From: Candidatus Nomurabacteria bacterium
GTDB lineage: Bacteria; Patescibacteriota; Saccharimonadia; Saccharimonadales; Saccharimonadaceae
Direction of reading: 5' to 3'
Assembly (NCBI GenBank): GCA_031261545.1
Contig: JAISJL010000016.1
Span: 1 to 46,506 of the forward strand
DNA length: 46,506 nucleotides
Part shown: positions 2,397-13,152 of the stretch, piece after piece
How positions within the stretch are numbered: the stretch's first letter is position 1
Layout: every line of letters begins with the position of its first letter
The notes under the pieces: model-generated
Seen by the model: only the letters and a program-made list of their open reading frames with translations
What the model was told of the DNA's origin: nothing
The model's database searches: none
Position numbers and translations under genes: made by a program

Positions 2397-3719
2397 CTAC
2401 TGTTTCCCCAACAAAAACGTCAATCCAGCAATCGTAATCTCAGAAAGTTCGTCTGCGCCTTGTCGCGAAAGTTCCGCCGCAATGCCCATTTTTTGCAAAA
2501 TATCTCGCAGCCTATTCGCCGAATGAAAATTACCAAAGTCCGTCTTCAACGCAAACTTCTCAATCTTCGCCCCATACACCACAAACATCTTGTCGCTCAA
2601 TTTTTCAATCCGCCATTTGTCGTCGCTATTTTTCGCTTCCAATTTAATCACCGGCAAATCCATCTCCTCGCCATCAACGAAGCCCTCCGCAATTTCCAGA
2701 GCGTATTTTCCGCTGCCCTCGTTTGCCAATTTCACCGCCCGCACTTGCTTCAATAATTCCCGCAACAAGTTCTCAATGTTAGTATGCGACAGCGACGAAA
2801 TCGCAAAAACCGGAGCATCAACCCCCACGACCTCACGCAATGCAGCAATTTGCGACGCAATTATTTCATCGTCCAGTCCGTCGATTTTTGTCAGCGCAAT
2901 AATCTCATTTCGCCCAATCAAATCTTCCGAATATTTTTCCAATTCATTCCGAATCGCCGTGTATTTTTCTGCAATATTTTCGCTATACGCGTCAATCAAA
3001 TGCAGCAAAACGCTCGTCCGCTCAATATGTTTCAGGAACTTGTCACCCAAACCTTTGCCATCGCTCGCTCCCTCAATCAGCCCCGGAATATCCGCAATCA
3101 AAAAGTCATTTTGGTCAATCGTTGCCACGCCAAGATTCGGTGTCAAAGTTGTAAACTCATAGTTCGCAATTTCCGGTCGCGCATTCGAAACCACGCTCAA
3201 AAATGTCGACTTCCCCGCATTCGGAAACCCAACCAAACCCACGTCCGCCAAAAGTTTCAACTCAATTTCTCCCGTGTATTCCTCGCCCGGTACGCCTTTT
3301 TCTGCAATTTTTGGCGTTTGTCGTGTTGAACTCTTAAAGTGCGCATTGCCAAAGCCGCCCTCGCCGCCCTTCGCCACAATTTTCCAATCTCCATCAAAAG
3401 TCAAATCCGCCACAATCTTGCCGCTTCCATCGCGAACAATCGTCCCCACTGGCACTTCCACCACCAAATCCTCGCCGCTTCGTCCAGCGCAAAGTCGCTT
3501 CGCGCCATTCGCGCCATCTTTGGCTTTAAGTTCTGGCGCATAACGAAACTTCAACAACGTATTCATATCCTTTGTCGCCCTGAAAATCACATCACCACCT
3601 TGTCCGCCGTTTCCACCGTCCGGTCCACCTTTCGGAATATAAATCTCGTGCCGAAAACTCACCGCACCGCTTCCGCCGTCGCCCGCCTTGATAAAAACTT
3701 TCGCTGTGTCAATAAACAT
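2397..3719 (-). CDS. obg: GTPase Obg/CgtA
   Basis: MFIDTAKVFIKAGDGGSGAVSFRHE... Obg fold N-terminus, G1 motif GFPNAGKST, and a DIPGLIEGAS switch region. I chose the start at 3719 (third codon of the ORF-track ORF) because a TGATATAAT box ends 6 nt upstream. Confidence 0.93.
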   Translation of the reverse strand: MFIDTAKVFIKAGDGGSGAVSFRHEIYIPKGGPDGGNGGQGGDVIFRATKDMNTLLKFRYAPELKAKDGANGAKRLCAGRSGEDLVVEVPVGTIVRDGSGKIVADLTFDGDWKIVAKGGEGGFGNAHFKSSTRQTPKIAEKGVPGEEYTGEIELKLLADVGLVGFPNAGKSTFLSVVSNARPEIANYEFTTLTPNLGVATIDQNDFLIADIPGLIEGASDGKGLGDKFLKHIERTSVLLHLIDAYSENIAEKYTAIRNELEKYSEDLIGRNEIIALTKIDGLDDEIIASQIAALREVVGVDAPVFAISSLSHTNIENLLRELLKQVRAVKLANEGSGKYALEIAEGFVDGEEMDLPVIKLEAKNSDDKWRIEKLSDKMFVVYGAKIEKFALKTDFGNFHSANRLRDILQKMGIAAELSRQGADELSEITIAGLTFLLGKQ

Positions 3720-3725
3720 ATACAT

Positions 3726-3734
3726 ATTATATCA
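3726..3734 (-). promoter_or_regulatory. Extended -10 promoter (TGATATAAT) for obg, 6 nt from the ATG (leaderless)
   Basis: The reverse complement of 3717-3740 reads TTTGTGATATAATATGTATATGTT. Confidence 0.5.
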
Positions 3735-3738
3735 CAAA

Positions 3739-3747
3739 TGTTATAAT
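3739..3747 (+). promoter_or_regulatory. Extended -10 promoter (TGTTATAAT), 6 nt from ATG 3754 (leaderless)
   Basis: aaaTGTTATAATaaagatATGaat. It lies back to back with the obg promoter in a 34-nt intergenic gap. Confidence 0.5.
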
Positions 3748-3753
3748 AAAGAT

Positions 3754-4437
3754 ATGAATAAAATCCCAAAACTCCATATATTTCTCATCATTTACATTTT
3801 TCTCTGCGCCCTAGTCTTTCTCATCACCGGCAAAACCCTCTCAATCTGGATGATTTGGAACGTTTTTTTGGCATGGCTTCCGCTTTTCTTTTCCCATTTC
3901 ATCACCAAATACAAAAACCAAAAGCTCACAAAAATCTTTTTCGGCGTCTGCTTCCTCTTTTTCCTCCCCAACGCTTTTTACGTCATGACCGACCTCATCC
4001 ACACCAACACCTACAACTTCTACAACGCTAATTATGAAATCTCCGCCACCTACTACACCGACAACTTCGACTCTTGGCTCATGCTCTTCCTCATCTTCAT
4101 CGGCGTCATCCTGTCTTGGACTTTCGGCCTCAAAGCCATCTACAAACTCCAAACTCTCCTTCCGCAAAACCAAATCCAAAACAAAAAACAAAACCCAACC
4201 ACAAATCCAAAATCACGCACAATAATTCTTTACGCAATCCTATCTTTTTTGTGCGCCCTCGGCATCTGGATCGGCCGCTTCCTCCGCTTCAATTCTTGGG
4301 ACATTTTTAACCCCCTAAACCTATTTCCCGCAATACTCCAAAACATCAACTTCTTCACCTTTCAATTCATTTCTGTTTTTGCCTTAATGATTTTCACCAG
4401 CCTGATAATTTTCCAACCAAAAATCAAAACCCCATAA
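3754..4437 (+). CDS. Multi-pass integral membrane protein (possibly DUF1361-type)
   Basis: MNKIPKLHIFLIIYIFLCALVFLI... Several hydrophobic helices and a RFLRFNSWDIF motif. The start was moved to 3754 to clear obg. Confidence 0.7.
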   Translation: MNKIPKLHIFLIIYIFLCALVFLITGKTLSIWMIWNVFLAWLPLFFSHFITKYKNQKLTKIFFGVCFLFFLPNAFYVMTDLIHTNTYNFYNANYEISATYYTDNFDSWLMLFLIFIGVILSWTFGLKAIYKLQTLLPQNQIQNKKQNPTTNPKSRTIILYAILSFLCALGIWIGRFLRFNSWDIFNPLNLFPAILQNINFFTFQFISVFALMIFTSLIIFQPKIKTP

Positions 4438-4441
4438 AAAC

Positions 4442-7400
4442 CTAGGATAATCCACAAATCGCCTCAAAATCCAAACTAGCCTCCAATTCACAAAGTTTCT
4501 CTTTAGAAAGATAGCCCTCCTTGATTTTACCGTTTTTATCTTGACCACCAGTGGGCGGATTGGCCTTGAAATAACCGCGTACGGCGATATTGAAAGCGGC
4601 CTGGAGATCGGCGTCAGAGATATGACGGCAGTCAACATATGGGCAGACGTAGATACCGATGTTGCCACGGTCTTTGCCGGCACCAAAGGTTTTGGAGAGT
4701 TCTTGCCAGTTTTTTTCTCGTTTTACTATTTCTATACCTAGACCGTCTTCGTTGGGACGCATGGCTTTATATATCATACCTTTGAGGTCTTTGCCTTTGA
4801 CGGTGTCTCCGGATTTATTGTGTGGAGCGAAGAGGCGGACATAGCGACCACTTTTCAGCTTCGTTTTTAATAGTCCATCTTTATAATCTTCTAATTGATA
4901 ATCGCCATTCTCGTCTAGGTCTAGGCTCGCCCAAGTTTTACATTTTGTGCAGAATTGCGAAGTGCCAGCAGCGGTGGTTTCTTTGGCATAGTTCAACTTT
5001 TCGCCTGGCAATGGTCGAGTTTTTGCCCCTGCCTTGTAGCCTCCCCAACTCGATTTGATTTTTTCATCATTATCGCCGCCACCTTTCAACACATCGGCTT
5101 GCTTGATACTATCATAGATCTTTGCAACTTTCTTACCACCGATTTCAAAACCGCTCACTTCATACTCAAAACTGAGTGTGGCGTTTTTGGATAATGCTAA
5201 ACTTTCAAGTTGATTTCTGTAACTACCGATTAAGCTTTCACGCAGACGAGCAACTTTTGTGTCCATCGCTGTAAAGGTCTGTCGAACTTGGCTGGCTCGC
5301 CAGCTTTTGACTTCGTTTTTTAAGACCTGCTGTTGATTATCGGCGATGAAATCGCTGTCTAATTGTTTAACCTGGTTATCCTCAACCTTAATTAAGCTCC
5401 ATGCTAAACCATATTCACCAATGTCCACGCCGATGAAACGGTTTTTGATGTTTTTGATGTTTTTGGCGTCAAACTCTGGGTTCTCTGGTGGTAATAGCTC
5501 GAATGGTTGCGAAACAAAAATGCGATGGTCTTTTTCGGAAGTTTTCGGATTATCACCAGACCAATCAATATCAACTATCTTCTCTGCGATGACAAATGCG
5601 CCTGACAGTTTCAATTTTGTCTTTTTCTGACTGTGCTTGCCGAAAAACCAACCCAAAAACTGTATCTGGTATCTTGACGAAGCGACTTTGAGCGCGGGAT
5701 ATTTCGCAGTTGTTTTCACAATATCACTTTCTGGACTGTCGGTATTGTCTTTGGCTTTACAGATTTTTGTTAGCGCGACTTTTTTATCATCATCTAGCTC
5801 ATAATTCTTGAACACATAAAAATAACGTTGAACTTCTTTATTTCGCAATTCCTCCGGCTTCTCACCTTTCTTGTGTTTCATATATTGCTTGTCAGGTTTT
5901 TGCAAACCGGCACCAAGCGTAACTTGATTGCCACCCGCAAAAACGTTGTTCTTATTGCCATCCGAACCAGTAGATTGTAGTTGATAACGCACGACAACTT
6001 GTTTTTTACTCAAAATCGCATTGTAGCCAGAAAGTTGCGAAAAAATATAGTTGTTCTCAATCTGGTCTTTTTTATCGGCGTCCGTCATCACGACCGCTAC
6101 AACTGTGCGAGCCAACTGAATAGTGTCTCTGAATAAATTGAGGTTGTTAAAATCTTTCTGGTACTCGCCAAATAATTCTCTAATTCTTGAGAGTTCGACT
6201 AATCTTTCTGCTGTCAGAGTTTTGCTCCATTCAATACACTTAAGCCGATCATCCCGCTCTCTACCACTTAAATAAAATCGCTCGGTATCTTTTTTAATAA
6301 AATTAACGCCAATTTCCGTAGCGATGCTCTCTAAAATATCTTTAACTTGTGTATTGCCATCATAACCGTCTTGCCCAAATCGCTCATAAAATCTCGCCAG
6401 AGTATTTATCGTGCGGCTTCCTTTTTCGTTCTTTTTCAGCCCGTTGGCTTCGTCTTGGTATTTATCTAAGTCGATTGCTTTATCTAAAATATCGCCGACT
6501 TTTTGGATCTCAGTTTTTATCAAAGATTTCAGATTGTAAGTTTGCTCAAAAAGTAGGCGTTTACTTTCGCCATAGAATAACGGTGCAGATTGAATATGCT
6601 TGCTCAAAATCTTCTGCCAGCCCGCTTCGTTGCTCTCGCCGTCTTCGGACTTTGTTCCACCAAGTTTATCATCTAAACTCCCGACTTCGTCGCCAACTTT
6701 TACACCCTTTTTCTTTTTGGTAGCTACGACTTTATTTTGCTGGTTGTGCTCATTCAATTTACTCCTGAGTTCTGCCAACAAACTTTCTAATTTCTCTGTA
6801 AACTCACGGTCGGCGATTTTTTCCACCCAATACTGCACAGTTCTCGCTTCTTCGGTTTTGGTTTTCTTTTTCTCAACCGTCCATGTATTCACAAAAATCT
6901 TGGGCTGCTCGGTTTTGGCGACATAATCCTTAATGTATTCTTTAGTTTCGGTTATTAACTGTTTTTCACTGTCAGTGTTTGTTTGTAATTTTAGAACCTC
7001 ATTAATCTTGTCTAACATTCTATCTAGCTCAATCATCTGTTCAGGTGCTTTTTTGAGCTTCTCTAAACGATTAGAATACCAGCTTTCTAACTTCCCACCG
7101 AAATCGTTTGCGTAATCACCCCACACCTTAACAATTTGCGGTCTCTCTGGTAGAACGTCAGCGATTTTCATTAATTCATCTAATCTGTTTTTTACAGTAT
7201 CCGTATCATAGCTGTCGCCAAAATAACTTTTGCACGCTTTAAGATAATCACGAAAGTCACCTTTTTTGACGAACAAGAACAAATCATTGAGAACGCGAGG
7301 AATATATCCTTGATTTAACGAGTAAAGAGCTATGCGATTACTTGTTTTATCGTCTTTCTTGTTTTCGTCAATCTTGTATTTATCGTTATAGCGCCTAATG

Positions 7401-8128
7401 ATTTCGTCTAACAGCTTCGTTGTGTCTTTTCCGTCAATAATCTCGAAATCTGGGTCGCAATAAAAGGCCGCATTCTTTTGCGACTCTTTTCCAGTATCCT
7501 CATCGACCGCTCTAATTCTGGGGTAATTATCGTTGTTTGGTTTTTGTAACCCGAACAGCCCGAATTTGTCTTTTTTGTTTTCTCGATACTTTTTAATTAT
7601 TTCTTTGACCTTTTCGTCGTCTTTATGTTTCTCGTCACTCAACAAATTCGCTATTTGGTTTTTCAATTTGTCGTCAGTGGTTTTCGCTGTTCCGCTTTTT
7701 ACAAACTCACACCATTTATCTTTTTTAAGTTTGTCCCGTAAATTATCGTCTATCGTGTCAAAAAGATTTGGCAAAAGTTGCTCGGAAAAATCATTTGGAG
7801 CGTGCGACTGTTTAGAAAAAATAAAACCTAAACTGAGTGCCTTGAGCCAAAACCTGAGGAATGAATATTCGCGCTCGCCATTCGCGATTTGCTCGTTGGT
7901 TTTTTCTGCTCGCCAAGTGAGATAATCGTTGAGATTAATATTGCCGTAGAGCCATTTGTTGTCGCTAGCCACGGCCTCGGCGATCTTATCACGCAAACCG
8001 GTAATGCCGCTTGGGTCAGCTAGCTCGTATTTGATGGAGCGCATTGAACCAGTTCCCCCAGAATACGCAATGCGCTCGTCGTGCAGACGATAGCCGCGTT
8101 TGCCTTGCGATCGTTTCTGAAACTTCAT
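4442..8128 (-). CDS. cas12d: Type V CRISPR effector nuclease, Cas12d (CasY)-like
   Basis: A ~1230 aa ORF flanking the CRISPR array and cas1. Residues are numbered from the ORF-track TTG at 8182.
- RuvC-I: RFIGVDIGEYGLAW (Asp920, codon 5423-5425).
- RuvC-II: LSFEYEVSGFEIGG (Glu1006).
- RuvC-III: SDADLQAAFNIAVRGY (Asp1190/1192).
- Zinc ribbon: CxxC (C1078/C1081) and CxxxxC (C1180/C1185) between RuvC-II and RuvC-III.
- N-terminal GYRLHDERIAYSGG..MRSIKYEL and SRYQIQFL match my memory of CasY proteins.
- The start is ambiguous: ATG 8128 (chosen), TTG 8146 (preceded by GAGGAGAAGG), or TTG 8182. Confidence 0.88.
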   Translation of the reverse strand: MKFQKRSQGKRGYRLHDERIAYSGGTGSMRSIKYELADPSGITGLRDKIAEAVASDNKWLYGNINLNDYLTWRAEKTNEQIANGEREYSFLRFWLKALSLGFIFSKQSHAPNDFSEQLLPNLFDTIDDNLRDKLKKDKWCEFVKSGTAKTTDDKLKNQIANLLSDEKHKDDEKVKEIIKKYRENKKDKFGLFGLQKPNNDNYPRIRAVDEDTGKESQKNAAFYCDPDFEIIDGKDTTKLLDEIIRRYNDKYKIDENKKDDKTSNRIALYSLNQGYIPRVLNDLFLFVKKGDFRDYLKACKSYFGDSYDTDTVKNRLDELMKIADVLPERPQIVKVWGDYANDFGGKLESWYSNRLEKLKKAPEQMIELDRMLDKINEVLKLQTNTDSEKQLITETKEYIKDYVAKTEQPKIFVNTWTVEKKKTKTEEARTVQYWVEKIADREFTEKLESLLAELRSKLNEHNQQNKVVATKKKKGVKVGDEVGSLDDKLGGTKSEDGESNEAGWQKILSKHIQSAPLFYGESKRLLFEQTYNLKSLIKTEIQKVGDILDKAIDLDKYQDEANGLKKNEKGSRTINTLARFYERFGQDGYDGNTQVKDILESIATEIGVNFIKKDTERFYLSGRERDDRLKCIEWSKTLTAERLVELSRIRELFGEYQKDFNNLNLFRDTIQLARTVVAVVMTDADKKDQIENNYIFSQLSGYNAILSKKQVVVRYQLQSTGSDGNKNNVFAGGNQVTLGAGLQKPDKQYMKHKKGEKPEELRNKEVQRYFYVFKNYELDDDKKVALTKICKAKDNTDSPESDIVKTTAKYPALKVASSRYQIQFLGWFFGKHSQKKTKLKLSGAFVIAEKIVDIDWSGDNPKTSEKDHRIFVSQPFELLPPENPEFDAKNIKNIKNRFIGVDIGEYGLAWSLIKVEDNQVKQLDSDFIADNQQQVLKNEVKSWRASQVRQTFTAMDTKVARLRESLIGSYRNQLESLALSKNATLSFEYEVSGFEIGGKKVAKIYDSIKQADVLKGGGDNDEKIKSSWGGYKAGAKTRPLPGEKLNYAKETTAAGTSQFCTKCKTWASLDLDENGDYQLEDYKDGLLKTKLKSGRYVRLFAPHNKSGDTVKGKDLKGMIYKAMRPNEDGLGIEIVKREKNWQELSKTFGAGKDRGNIGIYVCPYVDCRHISDADLQAAFNIAVRGYFKANPPTGGQDKNGKIKEGYLSKEKLCELEASLDFEAICGLS

Positions 8129-8172
8129 ATACTGCTTTTTCTTCAAAATGTCCTTCTCCTCTTGACATATAA

Positions 8173-8197
8173 TTAATTGCAATCTGTTATTTTAGAG
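8173..8197. repeat. Left arm of the inverted repeat bracketing the non-coding gap and the CRISPR array
   Basis: aatctgttattttagag (8181-8197) is the exact reverse complement of ctctaaaataacagatt (8522-8538). ttaattgcaa (8173-8182) pairs with ttgcaattaa (8545-8554). Read on the minus strand it contains TAAAAT (8189-8194), 6 nt before TTG 8182. Confidence 0.85.
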
Positions 8198-8358
8198 ACC
8201 ATGAGATAAAGGCTAAGATACTTTCTAGTGAATTCACAAACACTATCATATCTGGAAACATCATGGATTTACTTGAGAAGAAAAGAATAAGCAAAAATTT
8301 TCGGCAACTTCGCTACGCTCGCTGCCGCTTCCAATAAATTGGAACCGCAACGAAGCCC
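8187..8358 (-). ncRNA. Candidate scoutRNA/tracr-like non-coding region between cas12d and the array
   Basis: - Plus strand 8193-8213 (TAGAG-ACCAT-GAGATAAAGGC) is an inverted, degenerate copy of the 3' half of the repeat (TAGAGGAGAAAAGGC in minus sense).
- A minus-strand transcript would therefore carry an anti-repeat.
- Hairpins: ttccaa-taaa-ttggaa (8329-8344) and cggcagc...gttgccg in minus sense (8302-8327), the latter followed by AAAATTTTT.
- There is no ORF. Strand and ends are unverified. Confidence 0.3.
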
Positions 8359-8359
8359 T

Positions 8360-8516
8360 TGCCTTTTCTCCTCTATTTTACGAGGTATTAGTTTGTGTTT
8401 ATATGCCTTTTCTCCTCTATTTTACGAGGTAAAGTTATCCCTATCATGCCTTTTCTCCTCTATTTTACGAGGCCTGTTATCCCACTTGTATGCCTTTTCT
8501 CCTCTATTTTACGAGG
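8360..8516 (-). CRISPR. CRISPR array with 4 identical 26-nt repeats and 3 spacers of 18, 17 and 18 nt
   Basis: - Repeats tgccttttctcctctattttacgagg lie at 8360-8385, 8404-8429, 8447-8472 and 8491-8516.
- Spacers lie at 8386-8403, 8430-8446 and 8473-8490.
- The minus-sense repeat is CCTCGTAAAATAGAGGAGAAAAGGCA, with an internal CCTC/GAGG stem.
- Orientation is inferred from the minus-strand promoter at 8564-8592 and from the type V convention.
- The repeat boundary could shift by 1 nt, because 3 of 4 copies are preceded by 'a'. Confidence 0.93.
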
Positions 8517-8521
8517 AGTTC

Positions 8522-8554
8522 CTCTAAAATAACAGATTATTAACTTGCAATTAA
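8522..8554. repeat. Right arm of the array-bracketing inverted repeat
   Basis: See the left arm. It starts 5 nt after the last repeat. cctctaaaata (8521-8531) can also pair with tattttacgagg (8505-8516) of the adjacent repeat, giving 11 bp with one bulge. Confidence 0.85.
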
Positions 8555-8563
8555 CTACCTACT

Positions 8564-8592
8564 ATATTATCATAAAATACCAGTAATTGCAA
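8564..8592 (-). promoter_or_regulatory. Sigma70-like promoter in the A/T-rich leader, pointing into the CRISPR array
   Basis: Minus sense reads TTGCAA-17 nt-TAATAT. The predicted start is about 40 nt upstream of the first repeat. Confidence 0.45.
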
Positions 8593-8647
8593 CCTTTTTC
8601 ATATTTTGTGTCATATATACATGAAATTTGCTTAAAAATGAAACATT

Positions 8648-8656
8648 TGTTAAAAT
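8648..8656 (+). promoter_or_regulatory. Extended -10 (TGTTAAAAT), 9 nt upstream of the cas1 ATG
   Basis: tttGTTAAAATgattatatcATG. Confidence 0.35.
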
Positions 8657-8665
8657 GATTATATC

Positions 8666-9727
8666 ATGAAATGCAATGTCAAAACCCAAAATCATTCTAA
8701 TCGCGTGCCAATGTGGCTGCCTTACTTACACTCCATTCGAGAAACCAAAAAAGGCATCTTCGAGTTCGTTTTCAATGGTGGCACAGAAATTGTCAACCTA
8801 AACGAAATCTCTTCAATCATGATATATGGCGAAACTGATACGAAATTAGATCAAAAGATCTTGGATAAGATCACACGCAAAGGCATTCCCATAATCATCC
8901 ATCGCCGCAACATGTCGCAGCCAATTTACATCACTGGCGGCTTACGTCCAGACAAAGATGACACCATCACGGAACAACTCGTCAAACGTCAACAATCACG
9001 AACTTCCACACACATCGCTCGTCAACTTTTAATTGCAAAAATGCACTCAATGTCATATTTAATCCCATCAGCCAAAGTTCCACAATTCGCAAACATCAAA
9101 ACCTTACGCAACATTGAAGCCACGCATGCACACAAATATTGGCGTGCCTATTTCACCAAACTTAATCATCCCGAATGGATACGCCGCGACAAAAACCCAG
9201 CCAGCGAAGCACTGGATGGAGCCAGCAAATTTATATCGGGCATAATTTTGCGCTGGATAACCTACCATCATTTAAGTCCATACCATGGTTTTCTTCATGA
9301 GCCGACCGACTATCCAAGTTTAGTCTATGATTTAATGGAACCAACGCGTGGCATCTTTGAGTCAATTTTGCTTCAAGTTTTTATCAACACTAACCAAAAA
9401 GATTGGTTAGTTAATTCCATTTCCGAATTAAAAATGGCCCTCGATGAGCAAATCTACACATCGCTCACGCGTCAAATTGTCACGCGCCAAGAACTTTTAC
9501 ACGGCACAGTTTTATCGTTAAAATATTATCTGCTCGGACGCCAACGCAAATTCCTAATTCCTCTACCAGGCTCACCAAATGGCGGTCGTCCACCAAAAGT
9601 CGAGTTCCTACTTTACGGTCGCCATGCTGGCAAAACGAATTTTTGGGAAAAAGCGGAAATCGCTGCCAACAATGACAAATGGCTCAAACAAAAACCACGA
9701 CATTTTGATCACGATCACCCATTCTAA
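8666..9727 (+). CDS. cas1: CRISPR-associated endonuclease Cas1
   Basis: Cas1 catalytic signature: NIEATHAHKYWRAYF (Glu) and GFLHEPTDYPSLVYDLMEPTRG (His, Asp/Glu). It is adjacent to the array. A later Met (MWLPYL) is a possible alternative start. Confidence 0.9.
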   Translation: MKCNVKTQNHSNRVPMWLPYLHSIRETKKGIFEFVFNGGTEIVNLNEISSIMIYGETDTKLDQKILDKITRKGIPIIIHRRNMSQPIYITGGLRPDKDDTITEQLVKRQQSRTSTHIARQLLIAKMHSMSYLIPSAKVPQFANIKTLRNIEATHAHKYWRAYFTKLNHPEWIRRDKNPASEALDGASKFISGIILRWITYHHLSPYHGFLHEPTDYPSLVYDLMEPTRGIFESILLQVFINTNQKDWLVNSISELKMALDEQIYTSLTRQIVTRQELLHGTVLSLKYYLLGRQRKFLIPLPGSPNGGRPPKVEFLLYGRHAGKTNFWEKAEIAANNDKWLKQKPRHFDHDHPF

Positions 9728-10806
9728 ACATTAAACCTAAACTCCACCACATCCCCATCTCTCATCACGTATTCCTTCCCCTCCGTCCGCATCAACCCAT
9801 TTTCTTTTACATTTTTTTCACTTCCAAGCCGCACCAAATCATCAAAATTACAAATCTGCGCCGAAATAAATCCCCACTCAAAATCTGTATGTATCACACC
9901 TGCCGCTTGCGGAGCCGTAAAACCCTTGCGAATTGTCCAAGCCCGAGTTTCCTTTTTTCCCGCCGTCAGGAAACTTTGCAAACCAAGCGTATCATAAGCC
10001 GCCCGCACCACTTGCGCCAACCCACTTTCCGTCAAATTGTATTCAGCCAAAAACATTTCGCGATCCTCATTCGGCAATCGCCCCAATTCCTCTTCCAATT
10101 TCGCGCTCACAAAAACCGCCTTCGCAGGCGCAACTATAGCAGCCAATTCTTTTCGCTTCTCGACATCGAACAAATCATCTTCACTTACATTAAAAAGAAA
10201 AATCGTTGGCTTTTGCGACAAAAGCGGCAAACCAAAAAACTTTCCGAGAACCCCACTCTCGCTCGAAACAATCCGCCCATCACCGCCTTTTAATTTGTCT
10301 AAAAGTTCCTTATAATAATTTAATTCTTCAACCTTTTCCCGTCCGCCATTTTTCGCCTCTTTTTCCAATTTCGGAATATGCTTTTCCAAACTTTCAATAT
10401 CCGCCAAAACCAATTCCGTCTCAATCGTCGCAATGTCTCGCGCAACATCTCCCGCGCCCTCCACACTCAAAATCGAAGAATCCGCAAACGCCCGCACAAC
10501 GTGACAAATCGCATCGCACTCGCGAATATTTGCGAGGAACTTATTCCCCAAACCTTCGCCCTTTGACGCACCCGCCACCAAACCAGCAATATCCACAAAC
10601 TCAATCGTCGCCGGAACAATTCTTTCCGTATCATACATCTCACCGAGAACATCCAGCCGCCCATCCGGCACCGGCACAATCCCCGTATTCGGCTCAATCG
10701 TCGCAAACGGATAATTCGCCGTCAAAATATTCGCCTTCGTGAGCGCGTTGAAAAGCGTGCTCTTCCCCACATTCGGCAACCCAACAATCCCAATATTCAA
10801 GCTCAT
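9724..10806 (-). CDS. ychF: Ribosome-binding ATPase YchF
   Basis: MSLNIGIVGLPNVGKSTLFNALT; C-terminal TGS-like EGKEYVMRDGDVVEFRFNV. The start is at 10806, 1 nt after the fic stop. Confidence 0.93.
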   Translation of the reverse strand: MSLNIGIVGLPNVGKSTLFNALTKANILTANYPFATIEPNTGIVPVPDGRLDVLGEMYDTERIVPATIEFVDIAGLVAGASKGEGLGNKFLANIRECDAICHVVRAFADSSILSVEGAGDVARDIATIETELVLADIESLEKHIPKLEKEAKNGGREKVEELNYYKELLDKLKGGDGRIVSSESGVLGKFFGLPLLSQKPTIFLFNVSEDDLFDVEKRKELAAIVAPAKAVFVSAKLEEELGRLPNEDREMFLAEYNLTESGLAQVVRAAYDTLGLQSFLTAGKKETRAWTIRKGFTAPQAAGVIHTDFEWGFISAQICNFDDLVRLGSEKNVKENGLMRTEGKEYVMRDGDVVEFRFNV

Positions 10807-10807
10807 T

Positions 10808-11347
10808 TTACGCCTCCACCTCATAATAATACGATTGCTCGACTCCTTTCATAAACACTTCCCGATCGTCAATCTTATCTGTCAGTGCTGCAGAAAGCAA
10901 AGTCCGCAGTTCCAAATCATTCACAGGGCTACGCTCCATAGAACTCAAATAACCCGCTTTATTAACCAACGACCAGTCCACACATTTTCGCAAACTTCTT
11001 TTCAATATCAAATCCAACCAAATCCGCATGCTCCGTCCATTGCCCTCCAAAAACGGATGCGCAATATTCATCTCGACATACTTTACAATAATTTCCTCAA
11101 AAGCATTTTCCGGCATCTCCTCAATTTTCGCCAACGTATCACCTAGATATAAACTATTCGCAAATCGAAAATTACCCTTCGCGATATTTTGCGTCCGAAT
11201 CTCACCCGCAAAGTCATATAGCCCACCAAACAAATATTTATGTATTTGCCGTAAACCCACAACCGTCCCAACCTCAAAGCCACTCAACTCCGCGCTGTCA
11301 AATAACGCTTTCGCCCGCCCCTCGCTAACTTTATCAACATCGCTCAT
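10808..11347 (-). CDS. Fic/DOC family protein (putative AMPylase)
   Basis: Canonical Fic motif [12 protein letters not shown]. Confidence 0.88.
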
Positions 11348-12582: not shown

Positions 12583-13152
12583 CTAACCAATCACAATCTC
12601 CCCCTGCCTCAAAACCTCAATTTTCTCACCCTCAATCTTCACCACTGTTGTCGGCAAACTACCGCCAACCGCACCACGAACCACAAAATCCACTTCCGGC
12701 ATACCCAAAGCAACTTCCCCGCTCGTCGCATACGGCGCGACTCCCCGATAATTCGCACTCGTCAAAATCAAAGGACCAACCGCAGAAACCAGCGAAAGCA
12801 AAAACTCATCTCCCGTCAACCGAAATCCAATCGTCTCAAAATTATCAAAATATCTGCTCACTTTTCCTTTCCGCGGCAAAATCACCGTCAGCGATTTTCC
12901 AAAGAAAGAACGCAAAAATCCAAGAGCAAAATCATCAACCACCGCAAATCTCTCAATTTCCGAAAGCGACGAAACCAAAAGACTAAAAACTTTCCCACTT
13001 CCAATGCCGCGATTTTTAATCTCCATCATTTTTCGCACGGCCACCTCGTCATCAAACTTGCACGCTAACCCAAAAACCGTCTCCGTTGGCACCGCCGCCA
13101 CCTTCCCACGCCAATCCATCTCCTCAAAACATGACTTTTCCACAGTTTTCAT
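12583..13152 (-). CDS. tsaC: L-threonylcarbamoyladenylate synthase (YrdC/TsaC family)
   Basis: VAAVPTETVFGLACKF and LTSANYRG motifs; 189 aa. Confidence 0.85.
   Translation of the reverse strand: MKTVEKSCFEEMDWRGKVAAVPTETVFGLACKFDDEVAVRKMMEIKNRGIGSGKVFSLLVSSLSEIERFAVVDDFALGFLRSFFGKSLTVILPRKGKVSRYFDNFETIGFRLTGDEFLLSLVSAVGPLILTSANYRGVAPYATSGEVALGMPEVDFVVRGAVGGSLPTTVVKIEGEKIEVLRQGEIVIG

Follow-up and report, generated by a model that had tools for sequence, protein, structure and literature searches.

Which CRISPR-Cas system lies between positions 4442 and 9727 of the 46,506-nt DNA stretch analyzed here (contig JAISJL010000016.1, called the window throughout), and is it a new one? The first-pass annotation of this region had described a novel, divergent Cas12d/CasY-like system made up of one large effector, a 4-repeat array and Cas1 alone. 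Our analyses identify the region with high confidence as a chromosomal type V-D (Cas12d/CasY) CRISPR-Cas locus with a short-complementarity untranslated RNA (scoutRNA) gene, carried by a Patescibacteria bacterium. All sequence-level features of type V-D that were tested were found, namely the match to the effector model, the split RuvC domain with its zinc ribbon, Cas1 alone, the typical repeats and spacers, and the scoutRNA. Judged from its sequence, the locus is complete and apparently intact; it belongs to a known family, and the claim of a novel system therefore had to be given up.

Layout of the type V-D locus

Read in the orientation of cas12d, cas1 points leftward and is followed by the leader, the 4-repeat array, the scoutRNA gene and cas12d, the last four running rightward on the minus strand of the window (Table 1). 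The earlier inventory of an open reading frame (ORF) of about 1230 aa, a 4-repeat array and cas1 within 5.3 kb, with no other cas-like ORF, was confirmed (1228 aa; 8360-8516; 8666-9727). For the identification as Cas12d/CasY of type V-D with Cas1 alone, profiles, catalytic triad and zinc ribbon, fold, repeat geometry and a host from the candidate phyla radiation (CPR) all agree. The components had thus been listed correctly, but the location of the effector on the minus strand was left unstated and the scoutRNA gene between array and cas12d (8196-8270) was overlooked. “Effector, array and Cas1 only” consequently holds for the cas genes and not for the locus as a whole.

Table 1. Coordinates of the features of the type V-D locus in the window.
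Feature	Position	Strand	Basis
cas12d (casY) effector gene, 1228 aa from ATG at 8128, stop codon 4442-4444	4442..8128	-	NCBIfam NF033951, PADLOC, 28 homologues, N-terminal alignment
RuvC-III motif SDADLQAAFNIAVRGY, aa 1171, catalytic D1174	4571..4618	-	A1173, D1174, Q1176, A1177 invariant (28-sequence alignment)
Zinc-ribbon (TNB/Nuc) insertion C1060-x2-C1063...C1162-x4-C1167	4628..4951	-	C1060, C1162, C1167 invariant; C1063 at least 90% (28 homologues)
RuvC-II motif FEYEVSGFE, aa 987, catalytic E988	5144..5170	-	F987, E988 invariant (28-sequence alignment)
RuvC-I motif GVDIGEYG, aa 900, catalytic D902	5408..5431	-	G900, D902, G904, E905 invariant (28-sequence alignment)
Inverted repeat, 3' arm (CTCTAAAATAACAGATT), starts at scoutRNA 3' end, 53 nt upstream of cas12d ATG	8181..8197	-	Complementarity, shuffles, locus scan
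scoutRNA gene, directly upstream of cas12d	8196..8270	-	Covariance model; covariation across 19 loci; KbCas12d scoutRNA1 layout
93-nt GC-richer segment between last repeat and scoutRNA, two hairpins, then A4T5 run	8267..8359	-	Sequence; fold z-score -1.0; unique in window
CRISPR array, four identical 26-nt repeats (CCTCGTAAAATAGAGGAGAAAAGGCA, CRISPR RNA sense)	8360..8516	-	Repeat finding; orientation from published CRISPR RNA
Leader and divergent promoter region between array and cas1	8517..8665	.	Sigma-70-like sites on + strand, facing cas1
Inverted repeat, 5' arm (AATCTGTTATTTTAGAG), in leader, ends 5 nt before first repeat	8522..8538	-	Complementarity, shuffles, locus scan, minimum free energy fold
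cas1, 353 aa, divergent from array and cas12d	8666..9727	+	Pfam Cas_Cas1 E 2.3e-18; PADLOC Cas1 4e-22

The Cas12d effector

Using the NCBIfam Cas12d equivalog NF033951 with its cutoff of 250 bits, the effector was recognized at 880 bits (E 3.6e-264) over model positions 1-1179 of 1180. The two PADLOC Cas12d/CAS-V-D effector models gave 584 and 551 bits. A total of 28 relatives at 26-54% identity were found by word-indexed BLASTP homology search, among them two that are named Cas12d by NCBI (P0008, P0027) and one from Candidatus Vogelbacteria. The nearest relative, P0002, is 54% identical by BLASTP and 60% identical across the stretches matched by HMMER. When 1.84 billion cluster representatives were searched exhaustively, 215 clusters matched at E <= 1e-3, of which 109 reached E <= 1e-30; Cas12d is a small, mostly CPR-restricted effector family. 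The profile search that had been recommended thus favored Cas12d strongly. A protein that fits the equivalog end to end at 880 bits and has a relative of 54% identity is not a divergent one.

The split RuvC motifs and the zinc ribbon quoted in the first-pass annotation were all found in the C-terminus, and the catalytic triad as well as three cysteines of the ribbon are invariant among the homologues (Table 1). The cysteines lie in the motifs CTKCK at aa 1060 and CPYVDC at aa 1162. The only Pfam match of the effector, weak and sub-threshold, falls in this region (Cas12f1-like_TNB, residues 1156-1181). The counterpart of E988 is E913 of KbCas12d, whose alanine mutant was reported dead (bioRxiv 10.1101/2023.12.12.571249). 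An AlphaFold2 model of residues 790-1228 reached a mean predicted local distance difference test score of 64.7 and values above 90 in the RuvC core blocks; the model is poor in its N-terminal and insertion segments, and matches of the RuvC core alone are meaningful. In a Foldseek search of the PDB the top matches of this model were PlmCasX (4.8e-8) and Cas12c1 (2.3e-7), then FnCas12a, LbCas12a and Cas12c2, with RuvC resolvases next. Because the best matches are all Cas12 effectors, the C-terminus does have the RuvC/Cas12 resemblance whose absence, according to the annotation, would have refuted it. Among the sequences of solved structures that were searched, there was no Cas12d relative; the sole match, a weak one, was Cas12c2 (E 0.003).

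The longest reading frame of the effector, 4442..8182 on the minus strand, comprises 1246 aa and begins with a TTG; a further in-frame TTG lies at 8146, after GGAGAAGG. The N-termini of the homologues start 7-10 residues ahead of a conserved GKRGYRLHDERIAYSGG block, and the ATG at 8128 fits this spacing. From the alignment, this ATG is the likely start of cas12d, and the reading frame from TTG 8182 is probably over-extended; its upstream part would cross the arm of an inverted repeat that flanks the scoutRNA (see below). There are no frameshifts and no internal stops. The catalytic residues had been picked correctly in the annotation, but the numbers given to them (D920, E1006, D1192) fit the 1246-aa TTG frame and not 4442-8128; counted from the ATG they become D902, E988 and D1174. 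Similar overruns were observed elsewhere: the gene calls of P0002 and P0013 and the 1246-aa frame of the window (8129-8182) run upstream into non-coding RNA sequence, either inverted-repeat arm or scoutRNA, and the ENILAFLI at the N-terminus of P0002 is translated scoutRNA. Because automatic gene calls extend the N-terminus upstream in this way, Cas12d lengths in databases are inflated.

CRISPR array and scoutRNA

The four exact repeat copies occupy 8360-8385, 8404-8429, 8447-8472 and 8491-8516 (TRF score 190, far beyond chance) and enclose three spacers of 18, 17 and 18 nt (TACAAGTGGGATAACAGG, TGATAGGGATAACTTTA, TATAAACACAAACTAATA). Read on the cas12d strand, each repeat has a short hairpin on its 5' side, then an A-rich stretch, and terminates in AAAGGC, the end being ...GAAAAGGCA, i.e., AAAGGC(A). 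For KbCas12d, repeats of 26 nt and spacers of 17-18 nt were reported (bioRxiv 10.1101/2023.12.12.571249), so the CasY-like repeat and spacer lengths noted by the first-pass annotation hold. The published KbCas12d CRISPR RNA (crRNA) consists of the handle cuccgaaaguaucggggauaaaggc followed by a 3' spacer, and the repeat of the window shares the design of this handle, including the AAAGGC end. In the relatives a degenerate terminal repeat sits at the cas12d-proximal end of the array, which places the leader on the cas1 side and the direction of transcription toward cas12d.

A scoutRNA has been reported as a requirement of Cas12d (bioRxiv 10.1101/2023.12.12.571249; PMC11127173). Rfam detected one tRNA only in the window and has no family for the scoutRNA; we therefore built our own covariance model, R1, from four other loci, leaving the window out. 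MAFFT alone misaligned the scoutRNA stems, which is why a common register and a hand-specified structure were used. R1 gave a single match in the window at 8196-8270 on the minus strand (28.2 bits, E 4.8e-4 in a 310-kb search), and one site just upstream of cas12d in each of 18 other loci. The matched sequence, CCAUGAUGUUUCCAGAUAUGAUAGUGUUUGUGAAUUCACUAGAAAGUAUCUUAGCCUUUAUCUCAUGG (8266 to 8199, minus strand), contains an outer stem (8266-8261 with 8204-8199), the conserved UUUCC (8258-8254), an extended inner hairpin and an anti-repeat GCCUUU (8213-8208), which is complementary to the AAAGGC at the 3' end of the repeat. Outer stem, UUUCC, inner hairpin and UUAGCCUU form a layout common to this element and the published KbCas12d scoutRNA1. 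In the alignment of the 19 sequences 89.9% of the cells were paired, versus 31-42% with the partners slid, and compensatory changes were seen at 14 of 14 pairs. The covariation score of 0.92 compares to 0.22 in shuffles and was reached by 0 of 500 of them. We are aware that this alignment was fitted to the structure of the model, which favors that structure. Nevertheless, the controls with slid partners and the variety of pair types make the predicted fold convincing.

A scoutRNA-like element was also observed in a distant Cas12d clade with the order cas12d, cas1, array (L016 at ~2865-2945, L017 at ~570-650, L019 at ~2880-2955 and L068 at ~220-300). There it lies just upstream of cas12d and distant from the array, and an anti-repeat of 9-10 nt (GGTTCCTAAC) in its 5' flank brings it closer to a trans-activating crRNA. 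In the window, the scoutRNA and the last repeat are separated by the 93-nt segment of Table 1. This segment has no counterpart in the relatives L001, L002, L004 and L008, whose scoutRNA directly adjoins the array; it could be an insertion, or else act as a terminator or promoter internal to the locus.

An inverted repeat brackets array and scoutRNA

The one feature of the locus that possibly adds new biology is an inverted repeat. One arm lies in the leader, the other begins at the 3' terminus of the scoutRNA, so that everything from the leader-proximal repeat through the scoutRNA is enclosed. The two arms are complementary at 17 of 17 positions, and beyond a bulge of 6-8 nt some 8-10 bp of further complementarity follow (8547-8555 with 8172-8180). 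The arm score in the window was reached by 0 of 300 shuffles and ranked first of 172 windows across the locus. A bracketing repeat was detected in 17 loci, namely the window, L001, L002, L004, L006, L007, L008, L010, L011, L056, L059, L063 and L075, and the more distant L022, L023, L024 and L026, with 0 of 200-300 shuffles reaching the observed score in each. When the first 13 of these were scanned over the whole locus, the scan segment following the scoutRNA was always the single best complement of the leader segment, among 105-349 such segments. The repeat was absent or marginal in L013, L069, L070 and L072. At least six unrelated types of arm sequence occur among the 17 loci, while position and complementarity are kept: one arm ends 4-17 nt from the first repeat and the other abuts the scoutRNA 3' end. 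When the putative transcript of 391 nt was folded, the bracketing helix closed the minimum free energy structure; the z-score of -6.9 is partly due to the CRISPR repeats themselves. In L014 (2666-2966) cas1, bracketing repeat, scoutRNA and cas12d are kept with one degenerate repeat, ending AAAGAC, instead of an array. The 3' arm was also considered as a standalone repeat-like regulatory element; this was rejected, as it resembles the 5' half of the repeat only, and in one clade only.

The inverted repeat is most likely a long-range RNA helix within one transcript of leader, array and scoutRNA, a reading that is far less certain than the identification of the locus. In such a transcript the leader arm would pair with the arm behind the scoutRNA and thereby bring the 3' end of the scoutRNA beside the 5' end of the first repeat. 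The helix would also offer a possible cleavage site to a double-strand-specific RNase, and a cut there would separate the cas12d mRNA from both the scoutRNA and the first crRNA. In full, this proposal holds that a conserved helix of 17-33 bp with clade-specific sequence closes array and scoutRNA as one precursor domain, tethers the scoutRNA 3' end to the newest repeat-spacer unit and provides a processing site; we put it forward tentatively, and in all its parts it is rather improbable.

The strongest competitor is a role of the inverted repeat as DNA, in which it would be either a promoter or operator in duplicate that serves the divergent genes cas1 and cas12d, or a recombination or integration signal. 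We regard it as well possible, though short of an even chance. It is a serious rival because the leader arm overlaps -10-like boxes and cas1 is divergent in all loci compared for the bracketing repeat. Each arm lies upstream of a gene, cas1 or cas12d, and both arms are oriented alike with respect to their gene. The leader arm holds -10-like and TTGCAA boxes; in the window a TTGCAA-17-TATCAT sequence, which is a consensus match only, is found at 8545-8573 on the plus strand and directed toward cas1. Furthermore, in L004, L006 and L010 the complementarity reaches into what is presumed to be the promoter region. On the other hand, arms whose sequences have no relation from clade to clade, yet remain complementary and hold their position, would be unexpected for a shared protein-binding site, the locus contains no regulator gene, and the arms adjoin the first repeat and the 3' end of the scoutRNA. 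An invertible element was deemed unlikely, since array and scoutRNA, wherever both could be located, keep one order, with the array upstream, and one orientation with respect to cas12d. The type of mismatch within the arms also counts against a role as DNA: on the crRNA strand G.U exceeds A.C by about 21 to 9 in a hand tally of the arm alignments, with a one-sided binomial p of 0.022 for an interim count of 18 versus 7.

Two points weigh against the RNA helix. The excess of G.U is suggestive at best, and the loci from which it was counted are not phylogenetically independent. Moreover, the arms partly overlap a -10-like box (TAATAAT/TACAAT), and for this reason the complementarity may reach upstream of the transcription start, something that a role in RNA alone has no need of.

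In ribosomal RNA operons, processing stalks form a long-range helix that flanks a multi-product precursor and directs processing by RNase III. In the type II-A system of Streptococcus pyogenes a stem of leader RNA and first repeat favors the leader-proximal guide. A long-range RNA helix around array and scoutRNA would resemble both as a long-range or leader helix flanking a multi-product precursor. It would differ from them in that the leader pairs with a sequence past the scoutRNA, and cleavage or prioritization is hypothetical here. Its connectivity would be similar to that of the engineered KbCas12d single guide, in which scoutRNA, linker and crRNA are joined (bioRxiv 10.1101/2023.12.12.571249). 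A full-text literature search, whose reach did not extend to Harrington et al. (2020), found no earlier mention of an inverted repeat in the leader, and the study of repeat-like elements by Shmakov et al. (2023) did not cover type V-D. As far as this search reached, such a mechanism of biogenesis or spacer prioritization would be new for scoutRNA-dependent type V systems. RNA processing in these systems is listed as unknown (PMC11127173); if the inverted repeat acts as RNA, it would explain the maturation of the scoutRNA and the first crRNA.

Predicted activity and alternative explanations

Following the published work on Cas12d, including KbCas12d/CasY.1 and CasY15, the array would be transcribed from the cas1-proximal leader toward cas12d and give rise to crRNAs with a repeat-derived 5' handle and a 3' spacer of 17-18 nt. 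The scoutRNA would dock on the repeat via its short anti-repeat, and Cas12d, crRNA and scoutRNA together would form the active complex. This complex is expected to read a short T-rich protospacer adjacent motif (PAM) on the 5' side and to cut double-stranded DNA with its single RuvC site. Cas1 alone would insert the unusually short spacers. The characterized Cas12d orthologues have a TA/TR PAM (bioRxiv 10.1101/2023.12.12.571249; PMC11127173).

Some observations count against a functional immune locus. For the activity we depend on prediction, from the sequence of the locus and from published orthologues. Promoter and terminator scans yielded no recognizable sigma-70 promoter or intrinsic terminator bounding the scoutRNA. 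Exact matches to viral contigs were obtained for all spacers (7 for spacer 1, of which 6 belong to one phage family with GG upstream, 9 for spacer 2 and 2 for spacer 3), but few have a TA PAM and their numbers are close to the estimated chance for 17-18-mers; they were rejected as protospacers, leaving three spacers, none with a convincing target. No spacer matched elsewhere in the window, i.e., there is no self-target within it. Spacers 1 and 2 (8430-8490) were observed to have the 8-mer GGGATAAC in common, which by a rough estimate is unlikely to occur by chance in two 17-18-mers, and they may target related sites.

The locus might accordingly be a decaying or non-immune remnant, with intact genes and a mini-array of three spacers but without interference or adaptation. 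The small number of spacers lacking convincing protospacers would fit, and so would L014, whose single degenerate repeat indicates that arrays in this lineage can erode. However, the four repeats are identical, the catalytic residues of Cas12d and the motifs of Cas1 (NIEATHA at aa 149, HGFLHE at aa 207, VYDLMEPTR at aa 220) are all intact, the scoutRNA has every conserved element, and the effector frame is uninterrupted. A remnant is therefore quite unlikely. Only a slim chance is given to a complex that binds DNA and silences transcription without cutting, as reported for some enzymes of the closest sister family, Cas12c, for which the reports on DNA cleavage differ (table in PMC11127173): the RuvC triad is intact here, and KbCas12d and CasY15 were reported to cleave double-stranded DNA in vitro, with D827A/E913A abolishing cleavage (bioRxiv 10.1101/2023.12.12.571249). 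An effector of another type V subtype, be it Cas12c of type V-C or an unclassified Cas12/TnpB derivative, is hardly conceivable, for although the RuvC region also matches Cas12c profiles (38.8 bits in NCBIfam, at most 89 bits in PADLOC) and the sole sequence match among solved structures was Cas12c2, the NCBIfam Cas12c score is far under its cutoff of 250 and confined to the RuvC part, while the Cas12d models match with 551-880 bits end to end and NCBI names homologues of the effector Cas12d.

Comparison with related systems

KbCas12d/CasY.1 of Katanobacteria (Burstein 2017, Harrington 2020, as cited in bioRxiv 10.1101/2023.12.12.571249) and the system of the window have in common an effector whose length is about 1100-1230 aa and whose RuvC and zinc ribbon are C-terminal, a single adaptation gene (cas1), 26-nt repeats ending AAAGGC, spacers of 17-18 nt and the scoutRNA layout with UUAGCCUU. 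Differences were found in the position of the scoutRNA, which is described upstream of the array for KbCas12d (bioRxiv 10.1101/2023.12.12.571249) but in the window follows downstream of the array, immediately ahead of cas12d, and in its inner hairpin, which is ~16-26 nt longer in the window. Both gene order and hairpin length are differences within the family.

Closer relatives are P0002 in locus L001 and P0004 of Candidatus Vogelbacteria in locus L002, with 54% and 49% protein identity to the Cas12d of the window over 97-99% of the length. Both loci show the same order of leftward cas1, array, scoutRNA and rightward cas12d and the same bracketing inverted repeat, and Cas1 of L001 is 73% identical to that of the window. 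They differ in their spacers and in the junction of array and scoutRNA, where the scoutRNA abuts a degenerate last repeat; in the window the 93-nt insert stands there, and a degenerate terminal repeat is missing. L002 has an arm sequence unrelated to that of the window. In a wider comparison, Cas1 is 60-73% identical to Cas1 of other Cas12d loci and takes the same divergent position. Cas12c of type V-C is a sister family whose RuvC/zinc-ribbon region is homologous; it shares with Cas12d the dependence on a scoutRNA, the short spacers and the presence of Cas1 alone (PMC11127173). Its profiles, however, match only the C-terminal ~300 residues of our effector, under the cutoff, whereas the N-terminal 800 residues match Cas12d only.

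Because standard tools would type the locus as V-D, its discovery is routine. As a compact unit of 5.3 kb holding cas1, leader, array, scoutRNA and cas12d, it offers a convenient orthologue for work on activity, PAM and structure.

Neighboring genes and host

The locus is flanked by obg (2397-3725) and a DUF1361 protein gene (3688-4437) on one side and by ychF (9724-10824), a Fic-domain gene (10808-11347) and a Sua5/YciO gene (12583-13152) on the other. Profile searches, including PADLOC, found neither cas2 nor cas4 among these ORFs, and Cas1 is the sole adaptation gene of the locus. The adjoining Obg is ~59-65% identical to the closest named Obg proteins, which come from Saccharibacteria, Patescibacteria and Nomurabacteria, and most Cas12d-related loci originate from metagenome-assembled genomes of Patescibacteria. 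Both facts support a CPR/Patescibacteria host, which is typical of the Cas12d family without defining it.

The GC skew of the plus strand is strongly negative in every 2-kb bin of the window (1-46506), ranging from -0.09 to -0.44 with -0.30 overall, whatever the orientation of the genes. For cas12d it amounts to -0.11, far weaker than the -0.23 to -0.45 of its neighbors, which could be a sign of later acquisition of the gene. Finally, the Fic/DOC-domain protein of 179 aa encoded at 10808-11347 on the minus strand, at a distance of two genes from cas1, scores 293 bits against PDC-S04, a candidate defense family of PADLOC, and may represent a second defense gene beside the CRISPR locus.

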